From Thermoplasmata archaeon (GTDB taxonomy: Archaea > Thermoplasmatota > Thermoplasmata > Lutacidiplasmatales > UBA184): a stretch of 64,000 nt of DNA. The position numbers and the translations under genes were made by a program. The notes beneath the pieces were generated by a model, which was not told the DNA's origin, made no database searches, and saw nothing but the letters and a program-made list of their open reading frames with translations. Shown piece by piece: positions 2,927 through 51,537 of the stretch (position 1 is the stretch's first letter; every line of letters starts with the position of its first letter). The stretch lies in assembly GCA_035502475.1 (NCBI GenBank), contig DATJUJ010000036.1, positions 66,357 to 130,356 of the forward strand. Direction: 5' to 3'.

Positions 2927-3553
2927 TCACGACGGCGGGAGTGCGGGCTTCTGCGCGATGACCACGTCCATCGCCTTCCGATGGGGAACGCCGCTCGCGT
3001 CGGAGATGAACTCCACTTGCCCGGAGTCCAGGATCTGCCAGTCCCAGTAGTAGCCGAGCAGCTCTCCCGAGCGGAACGGAGTCGCCCAGGGGTTCGTCGT
3101 CTGGGGCGGGATGTACGGTTTCAGGACGTCGGCGTTCACGGCGTTGATCCCCCCCGGTGCGGTGTTCGCCTTGAAGTGTTCAAATCGGCTCGCCCGAAGT
3201 CGACGAGGGAGGTTGTTCAGGGCGCCCGAGGAGAACACCGCGTCCACTCGATGGCTCAACCGATAGGTCCGGATGTCGCCCACTTGAAATCGAACCGGGA
3301 CCCCGAGCCGAGCCGCCCGGCGCTCCGCCTTTCCGACTCCCACGCTCGAGATATCCACGCCCAGGACCCGGTAGCCTTGCCGGGCAAAGTAGATCGCGTC
3401 CCGTCCCTCGCCGCAACCGAGATCGACCACGGTACGGGGGGGGTGCGGGAGTGAGCGAGCGAGGCGAACGACCTTCCGGGCCAGCTGGGTGGGCTGGCTG
3501 CCCCAATACAATCCGGGGCGAGCGTACCGTGCGTCGTAGATCGGCTGCCTCAA
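2927..3553 (-). CDS. SAM-dependent methyltransferase (TehB-like)
   Basis: 208-aa ORF with motif I VVDLGCGEGRDAIYFARQGYRVLGVDIS and motif II/III DAVFSSGALNNL. Confidence 0.8.
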   Translation of the reverse strand: MRQPIYDARYARPGLYWGSQPTQLARKVVRLARSLPHPPRTVVDLGCGEGRDAIYFARQGYRVLGVDISSVGVGKAERRAARLGVPVRFQVGDIRTYRLSHRVDAVFSSGALNNLPRRLRASRFEHFKANTAPGGINAVNADVLKPYIPPQTTNPWATPFRSGELLGYYWDWQILDSGQVEFISDASGVPHRKAMDVVIAQKPALPPS

Positions 3554-3889
3554 CGCGAACGCTCCTCCGGACCCGGGGCGTAGCGGCCTCGGCCTGATGA
3601 GGGAGACTGCCGCCGGGCCAGCCCTCGACTGAAGCGACTCGGGTTGGAGATCCTGGTTCCCACGACGGGGGGCGGGGACGCGGTCCCGGCGACGGTCGCC
3701 CGACGGCCTGTCTCGGCGAGTCGTTCCGTGGTGCCGGAGTACGGGCCGGGGGTCGGCGCTTCCGGCTCCGCTCCAGGGCTCGCCGGGCGAGAGACGCCGA
3801 CCCGGCAGGGGCTTCGTTCACGCCTCTCGCCGGAGTCCGCCGTCCGAACGGGCGGCGGGGGGAAGGACGAACCAGAGGGCGGGAAAGCC

Positions 3890-3963
3890 AGCCACTGGAG
3901 GGACTTGAACCCCCGACCTGCTGATTACGAATCAGCCGCTCTGCCAGACTGAGCTACAGTGGC
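3890..3963 (-). tRNA. tRNA-Thr (anticodon CGU)
   Basis: The reverse complement folds as a 74-nt cloverleaf: acceptor GCCACTG/CAGTGGC, D arm GCTC..GAGC, anticodon stem GCTGA/TCAGC with loop TTCGTAA, T arm GGGGG-TTCAAGT-CCCTC, discriminator T. No encoded CCA. Confidence 0.9.
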
Positions 3964-3990
3964 GCGCCGGGCCGACGAGAAACCTCGACC

Positions 3991-3996
3991 TATAAG
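3991..3996 (-). promoter_or_regulatory. TATA-like box for tRNA-Thr
   Basis: Isolated AT island (plus-strand cctataaggg) about 30 nt upstream of the tRNA 5' end, in otherwise GC-rich DNA. Confidence 0.45.
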
Positions 3997-4014
3997 GGTG
4001 CCGGCGCCGACCGG

Positions 4015-5232
4015 TCAGGCGAGCGGGTCGAGCGCCTCTTGGAGGTCCCGGAGGAGGTCCTCGGGTTCCTCGATCCCGAGGGCGAGCCGGACCAGTCCGT
4101 CGTCGATCCCGAGCGCCGCGCGCTCGTCGGCAGAGAGACCCCGGTGCGAGGTGAGCCCCGGCACGCTGACGAGCGACTCGACCCCGCCGAGGCTCGCCGC
4201 GATCTCGACCAGACGGAGCCGGTCCAGGAACCGCTCGACGGCGGGGGCTCCGCCGCGCAGCGACACCGCGACCACTCCGCCCCGGCCCGTCATCTGGCGC
4301 CGGGCGATCGCCTCCTCCTGGGGACTTCCGAGGCCCGGGTAGTGCACCCGGGCGACGGCCGGATGGTCGCGGAGGGCCGCGGCGACCCGTCGACCGTTCT
4401 CGTTGTGCCGGGCGACCCGGAGGGCGAGGGTCTTCAGGCTTCGGTCGAGCAGGAATCCCGCGAACGGGTCGAGCGGCGCGCCGAGCGAGCTCTTGGGGTC
4501 GATCCGGTCGAGGAGCTCCCGCCGGCCGACCAGGGCGCCGCCCACCAGGTCGGAGTGCCCTCCGAGGTACTTCGTGGCGCTGTGGACCACCAGGTCGGCC
4601 CCGAGGGCGATCGGCCGCTGGTTGATCGGCGTCGCGAACGTGTTGTCGACGAGCAGGATCGCCCCGGCCGCGTGGGCCGCCCCCGCCCACCGGGTCAGGT
4701 CGTGGACCTGAAGGAGGGGGTTCGTCGGCGTCTCGAGCACGACGAGCCGGGTCCCCCGGGCGATGTGCGCCTCCGGCTCCCGGGCCTCCGTCCCCCCGAT
4801 CTCGTGCACGGCGACCCCGAACCGGGGCAGGAACTGGCGGAGGAGGTCGGTCGTGCCCCCGTAGATGCCGCGCAGCGCGACGACCGAGTCTCCGGAGGCG
4901 ACGAGCCCGAGGACCGCGGAGGAGATCGCGCCCATCCCCGAGGCGAACAGGCGGGCCGACTCGCCGCCCTCGAGCTGGCGGAGGGTCTCGGCCGGCACGT
5001 CCAGGGTCGGGTTCTCGTTGCGGGTGTAGAGGTACACCCGTCCGCGCTCCCGGGCCTCCGAGCGCTCCGCGGGAAAACGGAACGTGGAGGTCTGGTAGAT
5101 CGGCGGCACGACCGCCCCGGCGTTCCAGTCCGGCCGCCGGGCCCCGTGCACGAGCCGGGTCGTGGGTCCGACCCACTCGGGCACGGGCCGGAACTTCCCG
5201 CCCTTTGGGGCCTCGTCGGGCGGCTCGGTCAT
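4015..5232 (-). CDS. Cys/Met-metabolism PLP-dependent enzyme (cystathionine gamma-synthase / beta-lyase / methionine gamma-lyase family)
   Basis: 405-aa ORF. Family motifs YTRNENPT, ETPTNPLL and the PLP-lysine motif HSATKYLGGHSD. Confidence 0.85.
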   Translation of the reverse strand: MTEPPDEAPKGGKFRPVPEWVGPTTRLVHGARRPDWNAGAVVPPIYQTSTFRFPAERSEARERGRVYLYTRNENPTLDVPAETLRQLEGGESARLFASGMGAISSAVLGLVASGDSVVALRGIYGGTTDLLRQFLPRFGVAVHEIGGTEAREPEAHIARGTRLVVLETPTNPLLQVHDLTRWAGAAHAAGAILLVDNTFATPINQRPIALGADLVVHSATKYLGGHSDLVGGALVGRRELLDRIDPKSSLGAPLDPFAGFLLDRSLKTLALRVARHNENGRRVAAALRDHPAVARVHYPGLGSPQEEAIARRQMTGRGGVVAVSLRGGAPAVERFLDRLRLVEIAASLGGVESLVSVPGLTSHRGLSADERAALGIDDGLVRLALGIEEPEDLLRDLQEALDPLA

Positions 5233-22939: not shown

Positions 22940-23515
22940 ATGAGCGCGATCGGCCGGGATCCCGCGGGGCCTGGGCGCCGGTTCACCCGCTTTCGGCCCG
23001 GCCACGAACCGATCGGACCCGGCTACTCCGCCGTGCCGGGGAACGGGCTCTGCCTCTCGACGTTCCTGATCCTCCACCCTCCCGGCGACCGACGCCAGGT
23101 CCTTCTCGGTCGGCCCGACGTGGGCGGCCCCTGGCTCGAACGGGGCGGGCTCGATCCGGGGCGCCTCGCGGGCGTCGCGGACCGGTGGCTGCTCCCCGCG
23201 TGTCAGTGGCTCCTCTTCGAGGAGCCCCGCGCGTCGGCGGAGCGGATCGCCCGGGACCTCCTCGACTCCGCGCTCCCCCCGGTCACCGGGCCCGCGGTGT
23301 TCTCGGAGACCACCCCGCGGGCCAGCGCCGAGTCCTCGGACCCGCACTGGGACGTCCACTTCGTCTACGAGGGCGACTGGCCGACCGCCGCTCCCCCGAC
23401 GGCCCGGCTGTGGCGCGAGCTCGCGTTCCGCGACGTCGCCCGCGTGCGACGAGCGGAGATCGGGAGGAACCAGGCGGACATCCTCGACCTCGCCGGTCTG
23501 TCGCCGGCCCCCTAA
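22940..23515 (+). CDS. Hypothetical protein, possibly Nudix-fold with a degenerate Nudix box
   Basis: ATG 22940, in frame in track ORF 22865..23515 (whose 5' part overlaps tRNA-Phe). Contains GNGLCLSTFLILHP..VLLGR..WLLPACQWLLFEEPRASAERIARDLL. Confidence 0.45.
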   Translation: MSAIGRDPAGPGRRFTRFRPGHEPIGPGYSAVPGNGLCLSTFLILHPPGDRRQVLLGRPDVGGPWLERGGLDPGRLAGVADRWLLPACQWLLFEEPRASAERIARDLLDSALPPVTGPAVFSETTPRASAESSDPHWDVHFVYEGDWPTAAPPTARLWRELAFRDVARVRRAEIGRNQADILDLAGLSPAP

Positions 23516-23536
23516 GGGTCCGCGCCGTTCCGCGGA

Positions 23537-26455
23537 CTATCCCGTACCGGGAGGCGGGGGCGGAGGCGGCGGCGGACTGAAGACCGCGATCGGCGGGGGC
23601 GTCGTCCCTCCCCGGGTCCTGCCCCGTCGCGCCAGCAAGAGCCCCACGGCCGCCCCGAGCGCCAGGCCGACCACCAAGCCGATCGCGAGCCACGTCCCGC
23701 TGAAGCCGGTGCCGCTCGAGCTGCCCGAGCCGCTGGAGCCTCCGGGGCTCGAGGTCGTGTTGACCGTGACGTTGACGGAGCGGACCACCGAGTCCGAGGC
23801 CGAGTCGTTCGTCCACACGAACGCTTCGTACGTTCCCGCGGTCGCGTAGGTATGGGCCGGGTCCGCGACGGCGCTGGTGGCTCCGTCCCCGAACCGCCAG
23901 GCGTAGGTGTAGGGGGGGGCGCCGCCCGTAGCCGAGTCGCGGAACTGGACGGTCAACGGCGCCGGTCCACCGCCGACACTCGCCGACGCGTCCGCGAACA
24001 ACGGACTGCGCGCGGAGACGACGAGCGTGGTGGACGCCTGCGCTCCGAGCGCATCGGTGACGGTGAAGGTCACGGTGTAGTTGCCCCCCATCGCGAAGCC
24101 GTGCGTCGGGTCCGCCGCCGAAGAGCTCGTGCCGTCCCCGAACGTCCAGCGGTAGGCGTACGGCGCGACGCCGCCGACGGGGGCTCCCGTGAAGCTCACC
24201 GTGAGGGGCGCCGTCCCGGTCACGACGGGAGCGGAGGCGGTCGCCCCGACCACGTCGAACGCCCAGAGGTCGTTGTCCGGACCCGGGGACTGGGCCGGGC
24301 TTCCGCCGTAGAGGAGCAGCAAGCCGTCCGCCGGATCGTACGCGAGCCCGCCGCCGTTGCGGCCGCCCGGGTTCGACGGCGAGGCGAGCATGTTCGCGTC
24401 GGTGTTCGCGGTGAGCTCCGTCCAGGCGTGGTCCGCGAAGGACCAGGTGTCCCACGCGTCCAAGTAGCTGTACGGCCCCGCGATCAAGCCGCCGTAGAGG
24501 ACGAGGCTTGCCGTCTCGGGGTCCCACGCGGCCTGCGCGAACTCGCGGGCCTGCGGGGCGACCGTCTCGAGCGGTTCGGTCCAGGCGAGGTCGACGAGCT
24601 CCCACGTGTCCCCGAGGAGCTCTCCGTCGTCGTATCCGCCGAAGAGGATCGAGGCGTTCTCGGCCGGGTCGAAGACGAGGCTGGCGCCCTCGCGGCCCGG
24701 GGGCGGGGCCGGTTCGCTGAGCTGCCTCCAGGTGCCGTCGTAGGCCCAGGTGTCGGAGAAGTACTGGTAGGCCGAGGCGGTCGCGTTGTAGCCGTAGCCG
24801 CCGAAGAGCACGACGGTCGCGTCCCCCGCGTCGTACGCCATCGCCGCCCCGTACCGAGCCGTCGGCGCGGCCCCCGCGGTGGCGGTCCGGTTGGTCCACG
24901 CCCCCCCGGCAAAGGTCCAGGTCTGGTTCGTGAAGGTCGGGTTCCCGTGGGCGTCGAACCCTTCGCCGCTGAACAGCACGACCTCGTTGAGGGCGGAGTC
25001 GAACGCGATGCCGGCCTCCAGCAGCGGTGGCGGGGACAACGCGGGATGGAGCTGGGTCCAGTTGCCCTGGCTCCACGTCCAGGTGGCGTTGGTCGTCTCG
25101 GCGTAGTCGTTGCCCCCGCCGAAGAGGAGGACGTAGCCGTCCCGGGCGTCGTACACCATCGCGGGCGAGTAGACCCGGGGGCCGCTGGCTCCCGGCAGGG
25201 GCACGAGCTGCCAGGCGCTCCCCGAGAAGGTCCAGGTCGCCTGCGAGTCGTTGTACAGCTCCGCGTTGTATCCGCCGAAGAGGATCATCGGCCCCGACCC
25301 TTCCTCGGCCAGGCCGGCATCGTCGAGGGGTCCCGGCGTGGGGCCCGGGGGAGTCACGTTCGTCCACGAGCCGCCGGCGAAGGTCCACGTGTCGTTGTAC
25401 GCGACGTCCGTCGACTCGTTGTATCCTCCGTACATCACCACCTTCGAGAGGTCGGTGGAGTACGCCATCGCCTCGTCGTCGCGGCCGGGCGGCGCCGGGG
25501 ACGGCGAGAGCTCGGTCCACAGGCCGCCGGCGTAGGTCCAGGTGTCGTTGAACGAGTCGTAGTCGGTGGTGTTGAGCCCGCCGAACATCACGACCTCGTG
25601 GTCGGCGGCATCGTAGGCGAGCCCCGGCACGTTGCGGGGGGCGGGGCCCCCGGACGGGGTGCGGTTGACCCATCCCGAGGCGGCGTACGACCAGGTGCTG
25701 CCGAGGCTCACGTAGTCGCCGTTGACCCCGCCGAACACGAGCAGGTAGCCGTCCTGGGCGTCGTAGGCGGATCCCTGACCCCAGCTCGCGGGGGGCGCGG
25801 GAGCCCCCGCGACCGTCACGTTCGTCCAGACCCCGGCGTGGTACGTCCAGGTATCGTTGTCGACGTAGGGAGCGCCCAGGGACTCCTGACCGTACCCGCC
25901 GAAGAGCACGACCTCGCCGCCGCCGAGGGTCGGGTCGTAGACCAGCGTCTCGGCGTCCCGCGGCGAGGGCGCCTGCGCGGGGTGGAGCTGGGTCCACGCC
26001 CCGTCCGAGAAGATCCAGGTGTCGTTGGTGAGGTAGTAGGTGTACGTCGTGAGGCCGCCGCCGAACAGGAGGACGTAGCCGTCGGACGCGTCCCAGACGA
26101 GCGGAGCGTAGGCGCGCTGGAACGGAATCCGCGAGTCGGGGCCGGGGTCGAGGCTGCCCCAGACCGGGCCCGACGCGTTCGAGGTCGAGGAGACCGCACA
26201 CCGGGCGGCGTCGGGACCGCTGCTCGAGCAGCTCAACGCGGACCCGGCCGCGGGTCCGTCCCCGCGGGCGAGCGAGGCCGACGCCGCCGCGAGGGCCGTC
26301 GTACCGACGTCGGCCGCCGTGACCCCCGACGGGGCCGTCGCCGCCTCGGTCCGGGCCGCGCCCGGGATCGCCAGCAGCAGTACGGCGGCGATCAGCAGGA
26401 CCAGCCCGGGCGACGCGGGGCGGCGCCGCATCCCGGCCATCGATCGAGCGCGCAT
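23537..26455 (-). CDS. Large secreted/membrane-anchored protein: signal peptide, 12 Kelch-type repeats, 2 PKD domains, Ser-rich linker, C-terminal TM anchor and poly-Pro tail
   Basis: N-terminus MRARSMAGMRRRPASPGLVLLIAAVLLLAIPGA. Twelve (V/L)(L/M)(F/Y)GG..NDTW blades. WTFGDGTSS and WRFGDGATS PKD cores. WLAIGLVVGLALGAAVGLLLARRGR anchor. Many N-x-S/T sequons. ATG 26455 chosen (TATA-like box 20-30 nt upstream); the track ORF extends to 26512. Confidence 0.85.
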   Translation of the reverse strand: MRARSMAGMRRRPASPGLVLLIAAVLLLAIPGAARTEAATAPSGVTAADVGTTALAAASASLARGDGPAAGSALSCSSSGPDAARCAVSSTSNASGPVWGSLDPGPDSRIPFQRAYAPLVWDASDGYVLLFGGGLTTYTYYLTNDTWIFSDGAWTQLHPAQAPSPRDAETLVYDPTLGGGEVVLFGGYGQESLGAPYVDNDTWTYHAGVWTNVTVAGAPAPPASWGQGSAYDAQDGYLLVFGGVNGDYVSLGSTWSYAASGWVNRTPSGGPAPRNVPGLAYDAADHEVVMFGGLNTTDYDSFNDTWTYAGGLWTELSPSPAPPGRDDEAMAYSTDLSKVVMYGGYNESTDVAYNDTWTFAGGSWTNVTPPGPTPGPLDDAGLAEEGSGPMILFGGYNAELYNDSQATWTFSGSAWQLVPLPGASGPRVYSPAMVYDARDGYVLLFGGGNDYAETTNATWTWSQGNWTQLHPALSPPPLLEAGIAFDSALNEVVLFSGEGFDAHGNPTFTNQTWTFAGGAWTNRTATAGAAPTARYGAAMAYDAGDATVVLFGGYGYNATASAYQYFSDTWAYDGTWRQLSEPAPPPGREGASLVFDPAENASILFGGYDDGELLGDTWELVDLAWTEPLETVAPQAREFAQAAWDPETASLVLYGGLIAGPYSYLDAWDTWSFADHAWTELTANTDANMLASPSNPGGRNGGGLAYDPADGLLLLYGGSPAQSPGPDNDLWAFDVVGATASAPVVTGTAPLTVSFTGAPVGGVAPYAYRWTFGDGTSSSAADPTHGFAMGGNYTVTFTVTDALGAQASTTLVVSARSPLFADASASVGGGPAPLTVQFRDSATGGAPPYTYAWRFGDGATSAVADPAHTYATAGTYEAFVWTNDSASDSVVRSVNVTVNTTSSPGGSSGSGSSSGTGFSGTWLAIGLVVGLALGAAVGLLLARRGRTRGGTTPPPIAVFSPPPPPPPPPGTG

Positions 26456-26474
26456 GCCGGTCGACCGGGGAAGG

Positions 26475-26484
26475 GGTAGATAGT
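26475..26484 (-). promoter_or_regulatory. TATA-like box (ACTATCTACC on the coding strand) for the Kelch/PKD gene
   Basis: Same TATCTACC core as upstream of folD and topA. About 20 nt from ATG 26455. Confidence 0.4.
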
Positions 26485-26560
26485 CGCTCCGCCGGCATTC
26501 ACGCCCATCCATCGACCGCGCCCGGCGGCCGCTCGCCGGGCGGGGCTCGACGCGTCTCCG

Positions 26561-47462: not shown

Positions 47463-48137
47463 CTAAACGTAGACCTGGTCGGTGTAGCAGTAGTAGCGCC
47501 CGTACTGGGCGATGTACGTGGTGGGCCTTCCGCACTTGGGGCACATCGGCGCCGGCGGCGCTGCCGGGGCCGGGGGCGGCGGGGGGGCGGCCATCGGAGC
47601 GGCGGCCGGCGGCGGCGCGGCCGGGGGTGGGGCCTGCGGGTACCCTGCAGGCGGAGGGGCGTAGGCCATGCCCGGCGCCATGCCGCCCTGCGAGCGGCTC
47701 CAGTTGATCACCGGGTCGAACTTCAGGTAGGCGATCAGCAGCAGGACGCCGACGAGGATCCCGCCGATGATGAACCCCAGGATCATCCAGATCAGCGTCT
47801 TCGACTTGGCCGCCTCGAACTGGTGCTGGTTCACCAGCGCCTCGATCTCCTTCATCTGGACGTAGATGACGAAATCGACGACTCCCCAGATCAAGATCAG
47901 GATCGGGAAGACCAGGGCATACGCCTCGACGCCGCCACAGTAGACACTGCCGATCGAGCCGCAGACACTGAACACGTACACGACGAACGCGACGTACGCG
48001 AGCCCCGCCAGCAGCAGCAGGATCCCGAAGATGATCGCCAGGATCCGGACGATGTGGAGCATCGACTTGATCGACTGGACCTCGGGCGGCTCCGTTGGCG
48101 CCATCCCCGGAGGGGGCGCGTACTGCTGGTATCCCAT
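47463..48137 (-). CDS. Four-TM membrane protein with Pro/Ala-rich linker and a C-terminal (degenerate) zinc-ribbon motif
   Basis: 224-aa ORF. Four hydrophobic helices, then PPPAGYPQAPPPAAPPPAAAPMAAPPPPPAPAAPPAP, then CPKCGRPTTYIAQYGRYYCYTDQVYV at the very C-terminus. Confidence 0.7.
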   Translation of the reverse strand: MGYQQYAPPPGMAPTEPPEVQSIKSMLHIVRILAIIFGILLLLAGLAYVAFVVYVFSVCGSIGSVYCGGVEAYALVFPILILIWGVVDFVIYVQMKEIEALVNQHQFEAAKSKTLIWMILGFIIGGILVGVLLLIAYLKFDPVINWSRSQGGMAPGMAYAPPPAGYPQAPPPAAPPPAAAPMAAPPPPPAPAAPPAPMCPKCGRPTTYIAQYGRYYCYTDQVYV

Positions 48138-48341
48138 GGGGGTCGCTCGCGGGAAGGAGTTGGACCCCCTTCTTAGACCCTCCGATTCGATGCGGGCGCA
48201 TGCGGGACCTCGTGCGGAGGGGTCCCGGCCCCGTAGCAGAACTCCGGCACACGGGGCCGCCCGACGCGCGTCGAACGGTCCCTGCGGTGGAAGGGAGGGT
48301 TCAAAAGGGGGGCGTGCGCGTGGTCGTACTCCGTAGCACGA

Positions 48342-48494
48342 ATGCGCGACGGGGTCGCCGCCTTCTACGACCCGTACGCCTCGGCGCTACGACGCGGGCA
48401 CCGGGTGACGGCGCGCCCTCCGCACCTCGCGCGGACCGTGCTCACGGTCGCGGTGGGGCTTGTCCTCGTGGCAGTGCTGATCGCCGTGGCGTGA
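48342..48494 (+). CDS. Candidate 50-aa tail-anchored small membrane protein (not in the ORF track)
   Basis: ATG..TGA ORF MRDGVAAFYDPYASALRRGHRVTARPPHLARTVLTVAVGLVLVAVLIAVA. High GC3, one C-terminal TM helix. No recognisable homology. Confidence 0.3.
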   Translation: MRDGVAAFYDPYASALRRGHRVTARPPHLARTVLTVAVGLVLVAVLIAVA

Positions 48495-48586
48495 GCGAGG
48501 GCTGCGCGCCCCGGCTCTCCCGGGCGGCGCTCTCGAGCTGCGTCGGCCCGGGATCCGGGTCCTCGAACGCGAACGGCCGCGGGGTC

Positions 48587-48615
48587 GCCCGACCCGGACC
48601 GCCCGACGGCCCGAC
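48587..48615 (+). repeat. Three closely spaced GCCCGAC(CCG) direct repeats
   Basis: GCCCGAC at 48587, 48601 and 48609; the first and third extend to GCCCGACCCG. A fourth copy is at 48259. Lies in the spacer upstream of the RHH/FtsZ-like pair. Confidence 0.35.
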
Positions 48616-48711
48616 CCGAGCGGTTCCCAGAACTCGGCCGGCGGCGTGCCGACGGTGTTCCGCTCGCGGTCGCCTCCGAGTCCCCAGACCTTGCGTCGCC
48701 TCCACCGAATC

Positions 48712-48717
48712 TATATA
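48712..48717 (+). promoter_or_regulatory. TATA box (TATATA) for the RHH/FtsZ-like operon
   Basis: aatcTATATAcc is the strongest AT island in the region, about 55 nt upstream of ATG 48773. Confidence 0.5.
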
Positions 48718-48738
48718 CCAGCAGTCCGATATGTCAAT

Positions 48739-48769
48739 CGTCAGACAAAGAAAGGGGTGTTGTCTGACG
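48739..48769 (+). promoter_or_regulatory. Perfect 10-bp inverted repeat CGTCAGACAA-N11-TTGTCTGACG (operator and/or 5'-UTR hairpin with the SD in the loop)
   Basis: Arms at 48739..48748 and 48760..48769. The loop agaaaGGGGTG is SD-like. ATG 48773 follows 3 nt after the repeat. Confidence 0.55.
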
Positions 48770-48772
48770 GAC

Positions 48773-49138
48773 ATGGTCGACACGTCGGAGCGGGTGACGG
48801 TGCGGATCCCGCAGGACCTGCTCGAGAAGCTGAAGCAGATCCAGGGCCTCAAGGAGACGCCCACGATCTCCGACACGATCCGGGAAGGGCTCGAGCAGTA
48901 CATCGAGCTCAACCTTCCGCCGCAGAACGTCCGCAAGGTCGTCGTCGAGCTCTCCCGCCAGGACAACAGCCGCCTCGAGGAGTTCGTCCGCGAGGGCAAT
49001 TCGGTGAGCGTCGACGACGCCGTCCGCTCGGCGGTGCGGGAGTACATCCGCGGCCGCCTCGAGCAGATCGGGCCGACAGCGCGGACCCACCGTCGGGAGG
49101 GGGAACCGGTGGCGGCCGAGGGCTCCCCTCCGCCCTAG
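48773..49138 (+). CDS. Tandem ribbon-helix-helix (CopG/Arc-like) DNA-binding protein, two RHH repeats in one chain
   Basis: In frame in track ORF 48095..49138. Repeat 1: RVTVRIPQDLLEKLKQI..ISDTIREGLEQYI. Repeat 2: KVVVELSRQDNSRLEEFVREG..VDDAVRSAVREYI. ATG 48731 is an alternative start. Confidence 0.75.
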   Translation: MVDTSERVTVRIPQDLLEKLKQIQGLKETPTISDTIREGLEQYIELNLPPQNVRKVVVELSRQDNSRLEEFVREGNSVSVDDAVRSAVREYIRGRLEQIGPTARTHRREGEPVAAEGSPPP

Positions 49139-49153
49139 GCGGTCGGGGGAGCG

Positions 49154-50182
49154 ATGTCCGGGGAACCGCCTGCGCCCGAGGGCTGGGCCGCGCTGGCCGC
49201 GGCGCCCAGCGTCGCGGTCGTCGGACTCGGGGGGGCCGGCAGCGAGGCGGTCCAGGACCTGGTCACCCTTGGAATTCCGGGGGTCCGGGCGGTCGCGATC
49301 AACACCGACGTGAAGCACCTGCTGCGCATGAGCGTCGAGGAGCGGATCCTCCTCGGGCAGCGCGAGCTGCGGGGCCGCGGCAGCGGCGGCGACCGGGCGG
49401 TCGTGCTGCGGGCCGCGGAGGACGCGAAGGAGGAGATCCTCCGCCGCCTCGGACGGTTCGAGCTCGTTTTCCTGCTCGCCGGCCTCGGCGGCGGCACCGG
49501 GAGCGCCCTGCTGCCGTTCTTCTCGCGCGCGCTCCGGGAGACGGACGCGCTCGCCGTCCCCGTCGTGTTCCTGCCGTTCCAGGTCGAGCTCGACGCCAAC
49601 TCGGGCCGCCGGGAGAACGTCGAGGCGACGGTCGCCGACCTGGAAGCGATGGGCGGGCTCCTCCTCGCGCTCGCGAACGAGAAGCTCCGGCGGTTCGAGT
49701 CGCTGCCGATCCACCGCGTCTTCCAGGTCCGGAACGCCTACCTGCACTCCCTGGTCGCGAGCCTCGTCGACATGGTCGAGAACCCGTCCCAGCTGAACGT
49801 CGACCTCGCGAGCCTCAAGAACCATCTCCGCGAGGCGGGGCTGTCGACGCTCGTCACCGGAGAGTACCACATCTCCGAGCCCGAGCGCCTCGTCCACCAG
49901 GCGCTCAGCGACACCCTGCTCGATTTCCACCTGACCGAGCGCCCGTCGGCGCTCGTGCACCTCGACGGGGGCTCGAACCTCACGCTGCGCACGCTCGATC
50001 GGGTGCTGCGGACGATGCGCCAGCGCCTGGGCGACCCCGAGCGGCTCGTCTTCGGGACCCGGGTCCGGCCGGAAGCCCGCGAGGTCGTGCGGCTCACGGC
50101 GGTCGTCGGGGGGCTCAAGCCCCGGGCCGTCCACGACGCCCTCCGGGCGTCCCCCCGGTCGTCGCCGCTCGTCGCCCGCTAG
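49154..50182 (+). CDS. Divergent FtsZ/tubulin-family GTPase (FtsZ paralogue, no C-terminal tail, T7 loop NVDLAS)
   Basis: Motifs VAVVGLGGAGSEAV, AINTD, RGRGSGGD, GLGGGTGSALLP, LPFQVE, NVDLASL. Collinear with archaeal FtsZ over its whole 342 aa. GGGGGAG SD precedes the ATG. Confidence 0.85.
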   Translation: MSGEPPAPEGWAALAAAPSVAVVGLGGAGSEAVQDLVTLGIPGVRAVAINTDVKHLLRMSVEERILLGQRELRGRGSGGDRAVVLRAAEDAKEEILRRLGRFELVFLLAGLGGGTGSALLPFFSRALRETDALAVPVVFLPFQVELDANSGRRENVEATVADLEAMGGLLLALANEKLRRFESLPIHRVFQVRNAYLHSLVASLVDMVENPSQLNVDLASLKNHLREAGLSTLVTGEYHISEPERLVHQALSDTLLDFHLTERPSALVHLDGGSNLTLRTLDRVLRTMRQRLGDPERLVFGTRVRPEAREVVRLTAVVGGLKPRAVHDALRASPRSSPLVAR

Positions 50183-50799
50183 CGGGGCGGGTCCGCGGAG
50201 CGGGCGTCCCGCTCGTCGAGCTCGTGGTGGACGAGGTCGATCACCTGGCTCGTCCGCAGCGAGCGGGGGCCGACCGAGACGGCGGGGGTCCCCCGGGTCG
50301 TGGCGATCGCCCGCTCCGCCTCGGTGGGATCGTACGGGTCCGAGACGACCGCGGCGATCTCGCGCGACTCCCTCGACCAGCGGCCGATCGGCTCGCCGTC
50401 CTCTGCGAGCCAGACCGCGCCCGGGAGCCCCAGGAAGGCGGCGATCGCCCGCACGGGATCGACGGGACCCACCTTGAGGCCCGGGGAGGCCTCGACGTCG
50501 TGGTCGAGCACCCGGGAGCGGACGAGGGCGTTCTTGAGCAGCGCGGCCGTCGACCGCTCGTCGGGGTTGAGGTAGCGGAGCCGGGCGCCGTCGAGCTCGA
50601 TCCGGCGCGCGGCGGGCGGGGGCTCGGCGACGAACAGCACGGTCACGGCCGTGTCGCGCCGCAGGTCGTTCGAGAGCGTGAAGGCGGTCGAGACCGCCCG
50701 GGCGACCTCGTCCATGCGCCCGGCGCCCCCCGCGAGGTCGTTGAGGGTGAACTCGCCGGACACCGGGACCCGGTGCGCGAGCAGGAGGAACCGGCGCAT
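50179..50799 (-). CDS. trmY: tRNA (pseudouridine54-N1)-methyltransferase (SPOUT, DUF358)
   Basis: Motifs NDLAGGAGRMDEVARAV..LSNDLRRD, NPDERSTAALLKNAL, VIDLVHHELD. Shares a CTAG stop/stop overlap with the FtsZ-like gene. Confidence 0.8.
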   Translation of the reverse strand: MRRFLLLAHRVPVSGEFTLNDLAGGAGRMDEVARAVSTAFTLSNDLRRDTAVTVLFVAEPPPAARRIELDGARLRYLNPDERSTAALLKNALVRSRVLDHDVEASPGLKVGPVDPVRAIAAFLGLPGAVWLAEDGEPIGRWSRESREIAAVVSDPYDPTEAERAIATTRGTPAVSVGPRSLRTSQVIDLVHHELDERDARSADPPR

Positions 50800-50865: not shown

Positions 50866-51537
50866 CTACGCGTCGTCCCCGCGGCGGCGGCCCCGGGGGG
50901 TGGGCGGTTCGGGAGCGCTCGGGAGGGGGTTCTGCCGGCGTTCCAGCCAGACCTCGTCCCCCAGCTCGTGGTAGACGGCGTGGGCAGCGAGGCCGGTCCC
51001 GTGCTCCCCGTGCGGGAGCCGGAACGCCCCCGATCGATTGGCATTCGAAGAGTAGACGATGTCCTTCTCCCCGGCGGCCGCCATCGCGGCCGTCTCCTCG
51101 CGGGCGAGGTCGAAGATGCGGTCCTTGCGGAACATCCAGTAGTGGATGCGCCACTCGCGGCCGTCGTAGAGGGTCGTCTCGTCGCGCTCGGTCTCGAGGA
51201 TCCCCGTGTCCTCGAGCATGTAGAACGTGTCGCGGTCGTCGGGCTCCAGCACGTTGTCGATGATCCGCTCGTTGAACCCGAAGAAGTTGAGCACGTGCGC
51301 CGCGATCGACCGGGCGTCCTCGGGACGCATCCCCTCGTGGCCGACCGAGCGTCGGATCGCCTTCGCGAGGGAGTCGAAATCGACCGGTCCGGCCACGTCC
51401 GTGAGCGCCGCGTCGGTGGGCAGGCCCGCGCGGGTCGTGGTGATGTCCTCCTGGGTCCGCAGGGGGACCGGGTTCCGGAGGACGTACGGCTTACCGGAGA
51501 TGGCCGGCTTGGCCGGCTCTCGCCCGTGGCCTCGCAT
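50866..51537 (-). CDS. Hypothetical protein
   Basis: 223-aa ORF with normal composition. Core HVLNFFGFNERIIDNVLEPDDRDTFYMLEDTGILETERDETTLYDGREWRIHYWMFRKDRIF. Strong TATA box 28 nt upstream. Confidence 0.65.
   Translation of the reverse strand: MRGHGREPAKPAISGKPYVLRNPVPLRTQEDITTTRAGLPTDAALTDVAGPVDFDSLAKAIRRSVGHEGMRPEDARSIAAHVLNFFGFNERIIDNVLEPDDRDTFYMLEDTGILETERDETTLYDGREWRIHYWMFRKDRIFDLAREETAAMAAAGEKDIVYSSNANRSGAFRLPHGEHGTGLAAHAVYHELGDEVWLERRQNPLPSAPEPPTPRGRRRGDDA

Follow-up and report, generated by a model that had tools for sequence, protein, structure and literature searches.

What is the role of a gene pair in which a small ribbon-helix-helix (RHH) DNA-binding protein is encoded directly upstream of a divergent FtsZ-family GTPase on an archaeal chromosome? 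The question is raised by a locus of a Thermoplasmata archaeon (assembly GCA_035502475.1, contig DATJUJ010000036.1), studied here within a stretch of 64,000 nucleotides with 72% G+C, hereafter the window, to whose full length the positions refer. A sequence-only reading of this DNA had recognised in the pair the layout of a type III (TubZ-TubR-tubC) segregation module, suggested a DNA-tethered or RHH-autoregulated filament with a divergently encoded membrane protein as its possible anchor, and proposed profile searches, a phylogeny and a survey of related genomes as checks. We propose instead, with a probability of roughly 0.6 for this explanation as a whole, that the locus is the version of the archaeal cdrS-ftsZ2 division operon carried by the Lutacidiplasmatales (GTDB order UBA184). 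FtsZ-based division in archaea is understood almost wholly from haloarchaea, which have two canonical FtsZs, SepF and the RHH regulator CdrS. According to our proposal, an order of abundant acid-soil archaea would keep the logic of a regulator-plus-FtsZ operon with each of its parts remodelled.

Organisation and conservation of the gene pair

Both open reading frames are present on the plus strand of the window, the first at 48773..49138 for the RHH protein of 121 amino acids and the second at 49154..50182 for the FtsZ paralogue of 342 amino acids. The spacer between them measures 15 nt and contains, after the TAG stop codon (49136-49138), a purine-rich, Shine-Dalgarno-like GGGGGAG (49145..49151, +), followed by the ATG of the FtsZ gene. 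The presence of this element in such a short spacer implies that the two genes would be co-transcribed and translationally coupled. The start of the RHH gene was placed at 48773, since the upstream ATG at 48731, which is used in gene calls of 135 amino acids, is missing in distant relatives. The spacing, the GGGGGAG run, a TATA-like box and a perfect 10-bp repeat were all found as the sequence-only reading had described them.

The scan, performed with one genome per species, yielded 127 genomes with a relative, and 80 loci were kept for the synteny counts, including those of UBA184, UBA61 and Candidatus Lutacidiplasma silvani. Close relatives of both proteins number in the hundreds, all of them in metagenome bins named 'Thermoplasmata archaeon', and the host group is the order UBA184/Lutacidiplasmatales, acid-soil 'TMEG' archaea of about 69% G+C. 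The survey for RHH-FtsZ pairs gave a uniform picture: in 80/80 genomes, the RHH gene immediately precedes the FtsZ gene and shares its strand, with a gap of 10-76 nt that is mostly below 35 nt (tblastn coordinates). Between related genomes, the RHH protein is 72-94% identical, which is higher than the 63-93% identity of the FtsZ. The neighbourhood consists of housekeeping genes (ribosomal proteins S13/S4/S11, RpoD, TrmY, EF-1alpha/S10, UvrA and topoisomerase I), and the contigs bearing the pair reach 2.3 Mb. The locus is chromosomal and core in all 80 genomes.

Archaea are already known to place an RHH gene ahead of ftsZ2, which the sequence-only reading overlooked. In the cdrS-ftsZ2 operon, the RHH gene is co-transcribed with ftsZ2 (PMC7439475, PMC8406309), and genome comparisons likewise mention 'ftsZ2 frequently with parD' (PMC8178401) and 'RHH_1 in ftsZ2 contexts' (PMC9871819); across these four studies, the haloarchaeal arrangement is reported as widespread in archaea. 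In Halobacterium salinarum (VNG0194H-VNG0192G) and Haloferax volcanii (HVO_0582-HVO_0581), as in the window, a small RHH gene immediately precedes a co-directional ftsZ paralogue. The same layout is found on a Salinibaculum replicon, where an RHH gene matching the CdrS model is followed, after a 60-nt gap, by an FtsZ2-type gene.

A divergent FtsZ with an altered GTP pocket

The profile searches matched all three Pfam families concerned, namely RHH_1 in the small protein and, in the 342-aa protein, Tubulin (PF00091; 4.5e-24, 86.2 bits) and FtsZ_C (PF12327; 3e-11, 43.8 bits), the latter two both above their cut-offs. FtsZ chains of the PDB cover residues 19-324, with M. jannaschii FtsZ1 at 2e-43, and the best structural relatives are true FtsZ proteins. 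The match to CetZ is far weaker (1e-8, PDB chains), no TubZ chain was found in the PDB at E<=1e-3, and the N-terminal third gives a weak PHROG match to the tubulin PhuZ (3e-5). With TIGR00065, the score of 192.8 bits remains under the equivalog cut-off of 295.2, the haloarchaeal FtsZ1 and FtsZ2 references attaining 397-421. Among 1.84 billion representatives of clusters at 50% identity, the clade forms one full-length cluster, and no other full-length FtsZ exceeds 35% identity to it, two frameshifted members of its own clade excepted. By these measures, the protein is not an orthodox FtsZ1 or FtsZ2, a point on which the sequence-only reading had been right.

The FtsZ2-type group used for comparison was labelled by means of Haloarcula and Salinibaculum references from annotated haloarchaeal replicons (PLSDB), and the N- and C-terminal peptides of the references agree with the published ones of H. 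volcanii FtsZ1 and FtsZ2. The 342-aa FtsZ shares 31% identity with the FtsZ2-type and 30% with the FtsZ1 references. Its profile scores are 267.6 bits for the FtsZ2-type, 237.5 bits for the bacterial and 227.9 bits for the FtsZ1 group, and the neighbour-joining phylogeny places it as a sister within the FtsZ2-type group in 137 of 200 bootstraps. It is most likely a fast-evolving derivative of FtsZ2, albeit without strong support. The NCBI pipeline names its orthologues (for example P0126, P0149 and P0151) 'hypothetical protein', because they score under the TIGR00065 cut-off, while JGI calls them FtsZ; the FtsZs of this clade are hidden in an annotation gap that stems from a model threshold.

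The GTP pocket was aligned with the FtsZ of E. coli and M. jannaschii (sequences verified against the PDB) and 84 representatives; the alignment is gapless at T7, and residue counts for the clade refer to 120 orthologues. Both FtsZ domains and most nucleotide-contact motifs are kept. Four positions deviate from the usual residue: the T1 loop (GGAGSE) has Glu31 in place of the Asn of 82/84 representatives, Arg81 stands after GGxG where 74/84 have Pro, the last Gly of GGGTGxG, found in 84/84, is Ala118 so that the motif reads GGGTGSA, and the second, catalytic Asp of T7 (E. coli D212, M. jannaschii D238; 79/84 representatives) is Ser220 in the loop NVDLAS (codon at 49811..49813, +). Glu31 and Ala118 are invariant across the clade, and position 220 is Ser in 115 orthologues, Thr in four and Asn in one, never Asp. 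In addition, the 342-aa protein has an insertion of three residues after PFxxE.

The acidic residue of the T7 loop is inserted into the GTP site of the neighbouring subunit, and Lys254 in T7 of beta-tubulin yields a non-hydrolysing interface. Mutants of D212 bind GTP and assemble but barely hydrolyse it; the T7-loop mutants (E. coli D212G/A/N; H. volcanii FtsZ1 D250A and FtsZ2 D231A) show abolished or slowed hydrolysis and form hyperstable or dominant-negative polymers, and FtsZ mutants of this loop are mentioned in a preprint by Liao et al. Because of Ser220 and the known biochemistry of the D212 mutants, slow or absent self-activated hydrolysis is predicted: the 342-aa FtsZ would still polymerise and would hydrolyse GTP slowly or not at all. 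Unlike in the engineered mutants, the loss is natural and fixed across the order (115/120 Ser) and comes together with Glu31, Ala118 and Arg81, its effect being a prediction. If the protein does polymerise, it represents a natural experiment on a filament that lacks T7-activated hydrolysis and on anchoring that dispenses with a GID motif.

The latter point concerns the C-terminal tail, which the sequence-only reading had described as devoid of both a long linker and a docking peptide. The first half of this statement stands, as the linker is reduced to seven variable residues (331-337); the second does not, since the last five residues are conserved across the 120 orthologues. They begin with P338 (109/120), followed by three hydrophobic residues and then Arg or His ([LIV][FLV][AV][RH]), and read P-L-V-A-R in the window (50165..50179, +), for a consensus of P-[LIV]-[FLV]-[AV]-[RH]. 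In archaeal FtsZ, the C-terminal peptide is centred on a GID motif that binds SepF (PMC8178401). Neither GID nor G[IL][DE] was found in the tail of the 342-aa FtsZ, and the pentapeptide, a candidate docking peptide, probably takes the place of this motif in attaching the protein to a partner.

Could so altered a paralogue have left division, to act in cell shape or the cytoskeleton as CetZ does, or as a scaffold without enzymatic activity, with the RHH protein as its local repressor? Its identity of only about 30% to FtsZ1 and FtsZ2 references that share 47-49% with each other would suit such a fate, as would the absence of the GID motif, the loss of pocket residues kept in 79-84 of the 84 representatives, and the existence in genome UBA184 of at least two more FtsZ/tubulin loci that could take charge of division. 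However, the CetZ match is far weaker than that to FtsZ (1e-8 against 2e-43), the RHH-FtsZ2 context is tied to division in the organisms studied, and strong purifying selection together with single-copy conservation across the order suggests a core function. We therefore regard a departure from division as doubtful.

A probable tandem RHH protein

The 121-aa protein matches Pfam RHH_1 on residues 7-45 (E=7e-8, 32.6 bits against a cut-off of 20.5 bits), and its top NCBIfam match is the CdrS model NF058555 (E=2.3e-7, residues 6-41); the aCcr1 model NF053762 matches weakly (E=4e-4), and 366 homologous clusters were found. The score of 30.7 bits with the CdrS model is below the equivalog cut-off of 100 bits. 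The plasmid-borne RHH protein encoded next to the Salinibaculum FtsZ2-type gene also falls under this cut-off, with 57.9 bits, and it can be concluded that the model is narrow.

Two consecutive RHH repeats, forming a covalent pseudo-dimer, had been read from the sequence. Unit 1 (residues 6-47; 48788-48913, +) was confirmed by the Pfam match, and unit 2 (residues 54-98; 48932-49066, +) is only probable. A profile-profile alignment with hhalign pairs residues 7-48 with residues 55-96 in register and without gaps over 42 columns (E=0.0011), and Pfam reports a second, weak RHH_1 stretch at E<=1. Matches of the C-terminal half to RHH_8 (E=0.03) and of residues 52-95 to a CopG antitoxin chain (E=0.88) are weak, and a BLAST comparison of the two halves gave an out-of-register match only. 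The AlphaFold2 model of residues 1-100 contains two helix-helix hairpins (H14-27/H32-47 and H62-73/H80-99; pLDDT 70.9) with no beta-sheet formed, an earlier model that included the tail and used a shallow alignment having reached a pLDDT of 52.8. All leading Foldseek matches are RHH proteins, but at non-significant values (E>=0.4). Unit 2 is more conserved than unit 1, REGNSVSVDDAVRSAVREYIR being nearly invariant, and is followed by a conserved Pro/Gly-rich tail. Overall, the small protein is probably a tandem RHH. The linker between the units is only about seven residues long (L48-R54), so that the units may pair between chains (N with N', C with C') just as well as within one.

Natural single-chain tandem RHH proteins exist, as exemplified by TraY of the F plasmid. 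VirC2 of Agrobacterium similarly has two RHH motifs per polypeptide, and with them the RHH 'dimer' could arise within one chain (PMC3159463). These are bacterial T-DNA or relaxosome accessory proteins, unlike the protein described here, and such precedents make the RHH duplication a variant rather than a new principle.

The end of the RHH gene and the start of the FtsZ gene share a direct repeat of 25 nt (49100-49124 and 49160-49184; 84% identical, 60 nt apart) that encodes similar peptides, GEPVAAEGS at the end of the RHH protein and GEPPAPEGW where the FtsZ begins. The order as a whole keeps the RHH tail RREGEPVAAEGSPPP, and the FtsZ N-terminus varies except for W11.

Promoter and operator candidate

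The last ~70 nt before the ATG of the RHH gene are conserved across the order and contain two elements. The first is a TATA-like element, TCTATATACC in the window (48710..48719, +) and TTCATATAC or TTCAAATAC in relatives, which keeps its position across 79 related loci and lies about 25 nt upstream of the second; we infer that it functions as an archaeal TATA box. The second is a perfect 10-bp inverted repeat, CGTCAGACAA-N11-TTGTCTGACG (48739..48769, not assigned to a strand), with arms at 48739-48748 and 48760-48769. Its cores are two GTCnGAC heptamers (48740-48746 and 48762-48768), each palindromic in itself, whose centres are 22 bp apart, and the whole palindrome ends 3 nt before the ATG. 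The pattern GTCnGAC-N14/15-GTCnGAC was found in 79/79 loci with enough upstream sequence, as well as in the window, with N14 in four loci and N15 in all others; nearly all have the canonical GTCAGAC...GTCTGAC, and the pattern ends 3-6 nt before the ATG. Elsewhere in 1.25 Mb of related sequence, the two-heptamer pattern is absent but for a single, looser pair at N20 spacing, one heptamer of which is a variant (L040). In one subclade, a third heptamer, GTCCGAC, stands 22 nt upstream of the left arm and beside the TATA-like box, giving three heptamers in phase (L068 412-461; L084 3043-3092; L085 7541-7590; L087 7535-7584).

Further upstream, the DNA of the related loci is unrelated. The gap back to the divergent gene at 47463..48137 measures 635 nt and is unconserved beyond its last ~70 nt, relatives have another upstream neighbour gene, and the gap has no match in Rfam. 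The 'poorly coding' DNA of about 0.6 kb pointed out by the sequence-only reading is plain, unconserved spacer.

Is the inverted repeat recognised in DNA or in RNA? Its conservation is strict: six of the ten pairs never vary, and only the outermost pair and the central n show variation. Such behaviour is in keeping with a DNA site recognised by a protein, with which the predicted transcription start, some 25 nt past the TATA box, would overlap. A site over the transcription start is the classic position for repression in archaea. We suggest that the RHH protein binds this operator candidate; its autoregulation of the operon, one of the two possibilities raised by the sequence-only reading, is plausible, given the strict conservation of an operator-like palindrome at the place where transcription is predicted to start. 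The invariant operator also offers an immediately testable DNA target.

The same letters could alternatively form an RNA hairpin in the 5' leader that ends 3 nt before the AUG, with a 10-bp stem and an 11-nt G-rich loop, and control translation or mRNA stability. The stem lies inside the predicted leader and appears in the minimum-free-energy fold (-17.9 kcal/mol), the loop often carries GGGG(T), a possible ribosome-binding element, and the outermost C-G pair is replaced by U-A through double changes in six distinct sequences. Yet this fold is unremarkable for its composition (z=-1.67), with 11 of 200 shuffles folding as well, and the covariation of the stem is no higher than in slid controls. 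Changes of the central n of the heptamer break a pair without compensation in five loci (L002, L016, L030, L056 and L071), L079, L083 and L086 have lost pairing at the outer AA/TT positions, and in eight distinct sequences the outermost bases do not pair. Moreover, the third heptamer of L068, L084, L085 and L087 has the same 22-nt phasing outside any hairpin, self-palindromic arms suit recognition by a dimeric protein, and Rfam holds no match. An RNA hairpin is consequently an unlikely explanation for the repeat.

A probable cdrS-ftsZ2 operon with remodelled parts

The comparison with known systems specifies what would have been remodelled in the cdrS-ftsZ2 operon. The NCBIfam model of CdrS has 61 positions and one RHH unit, whereas the protein of the window has 121 amino acids, probably two units and a conserved tail. 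In contrast to haloarchaeal FtsZ2, to which it is about 31% identical, the 342-aa FtsZ has no GID motif, long linker or catalytic T7 Asp. A CdrL-like gene is absent. In ChIP-seq of Haloferax, CdrS binds mostly upstream of promoters, including that of ftsZ1, with no autoregulatory site in the reported table; in the Lutacidiplasmatales, by contrast, the candidate site overlaps the start of the operon itself. A further parallel is aCcr1 of the Sulfolobales, also a small RHH protein controlling division genes, which acts as a repressor at division-machinery promoters (PMC9976878, PMC9976892). It differs in regulating ESCRT/Cdv-based division, in being unlinked to ftsZ and in having a single RHH unit. 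What is new in the present locus is the probable tandem RHH, the invariant operator without RNA-type covariation, the highly divergent FtsZ with its aberrant pocket and weak affinity to FtsZ2, and the short linker with a conserved terminal peptide.

We propose the following mechanism for this operon. Transcription would be initiated at the palindromic operator or slightly within it, some 25 nt past the TATA-like box; the two GTCnGAC heptamers of this operator are two helical turns apart. A CdrS-like regulator, probably extended by a further RHH unit, would bind this operator with one RHH module per heptamer, and this binding would feed back on its own operon, setting the dose of the co-transcribed FtsZ paralogue. 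The regulator probably also controls other division genes elsewhere, as CdrS and aCcr1 do. The FtsZ, most likely of FtsZ2 descent and evolving very fast, with Glu31, Ala118 and Ser220 fixed, would probably work alongside a canonical FtsZ encoded elsewhere and dock a partner via its short, conserved, hydrophobic C-terminal peptide rather than via GID.

Several observations weigh against this proposal. On the regulator side, a score of 30.7 bits, far under 100, falls short of showing that the RHH protein is a CdrS orthologue; RHH domains are short and often recruited, and the AlphaFold models are mediocre, the RHH sheet not being formed. For the FtsZ, the FtsZ2 placement is weak (68% bootstrap, distance method, long branch), 62 of the 200 replicates attach the protein to long bacterial branches, and the N-E-K-L in 'ALANEKL' resembles FtsZ1 or bacterial FtsZ, not FtsZ2 ('LDNNRL'). 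The first T7 Asp, D217, is kept, so some GTPase activity may remain. Five FtsZ2-type genes of other lineages have no RHH neighbour, small-ORF checks in the gaps being negative, and a canonical FtsZ1 or SepF was not found in the same genomes, whose protein sets were checked by composition. Finally, the DNA binding, the transcript and the GTPase features are all predictions.

The window contains one FtsZ only. The RHH-linked FtsZ gene of genome UBA184 is on DAEB01000032.1, and two more hits in this genome, on DAEB01000007.1 and DAEB01000013.1, appear in a published FtsZ/tubulin data set; the lineage probably has additional tubulin-superfamily proteins. The literature on Lutacidiplasmatales and Thermoplasmatota that was searched does not mention FtsZ or division.

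A bolder version of the cdrS-ftsZ2 proposal, which we consider quite improbable, would have the T7-defective FtsZ, itself unable to hydrolyse GTP, assemble obligatorily with a canonical FtsZ encoded elsewhere. In the resulting heteropolymer, GTP could be hydrolysed at only every second interface, the single-chain tandem-RHH autoregulator would fix the stoichiometry, and the P-Φ-Φ-Φ-R/H peptide, new in this role, would replace the SepF-binding GID motif in docking to the membrane or a partner. If true, this would be an independently evolved prokaryotic counterpart of the division of labour between alpha- and beta-tubulin.

An improbable segregation module and the neighbouring genes

The analogy with TubZ-TubR-tubC, in which the RHH protein would be a centromere adaptor and the membrane protein an anchor for a type III or DNA-tethered segregation module, draws on the shared order of a small DNA-binding gene, a tubulin-superfamily GTPase just downstream and a cis element upstream, on an atypical and probably poor GTPase with a weak PhuZ match (3e-5) and on the RHH centromere-binding adaptors of type Ib/II partition (ParG, ParR), but it is very improbable, given a GTPase with both FtsZ domains and PDB matches to FtsZ (2e-43) and not TubZ, an RHH adaptor where TubR is a winged-helix protein, a single palindrome between TATA box and start codon with no repeat array found in 48100-49200, a housekeeping chromosomal setting, not a plasmid or phage, in 80/80 genomes with contigs of up to 2.3 Mb, and a membrane protein that is seldom a neighbour.

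This last protein, of 224 amino acids (47463-48137, -), adjoins the pair in only 3/80 genomes, and is therefore not a dedicated partner or anchor, contrary to what had been suggested. It matched no Pfam family. It has about four predicted transmembrane segments and a linker rich in Pro and Ala, and its C-terminus bears CPKCG...CY, a motif resembling a zinc ribbon. With a membrane attachment, a disordered linker and a zinc ribbon, this architecture loosely recalls CdpC, the haloarchaeal FtsZ1 anchor (2026 preprint), the likeness being one of layout alone.

Downstream, a convergent TrmY gene follows the FtsZ gene in 80/80 genomes; in the window, the stop codon of this TrmY-type tRNA methyltransferase gene (50179-50799, -) and the stop region of the FtsZ gene have an overlap of 4 nt. 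A DUF6015 gene comes next in 75/80 genomes (50866-51537, -, in the window), the contig ending first in four of the remaining five and L045 being the fifth. A functional link of the TrmY and DUF6015 neighbours to the pair is not evident. In another part of the window, at 23283-26512, long overlapping open reading frames occupy both strands (991-1071 aa on the minus and 875 aa on the plus strand) at 72-75% G+C, and a GC3 filter did not resolve the true gene frame.

Other FtsZ-like sequences

The RBG-16-68-12/Methanomassiliicoccales clade was considered as a relative of the 342-aa FtsZ and rejected, being a different family with a truncated, GTPase-only FtsZ-like protein. Its member OGS45336.1 (RBG-16-68-12, supplement of PMC9871819) belongs to a Thermoplasmata FtsZ-like family with a GTPase domain and an unrelated tail, and is unstable across published trees. 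This family, although unrelated to the RHH-FtsZ pair, shows further diversification of the tubulin superfamily within Thermoplasmata. In a marine metagenome locus of FtsZ2 type (L091), a PRC-barrel gene (1746-2000, -) lies near ftsZ (3001-4146), the PRC-barrel being the family of the CdpB division proteins. Three proteins of 744-840 aa (P0245, P0247 and P0249) contain two FtsZ-like stretches per chain and are tandem FtsZ-FtsZ fusions; one cluster of such fusions has two members from Candidatus Altiarchaeales.

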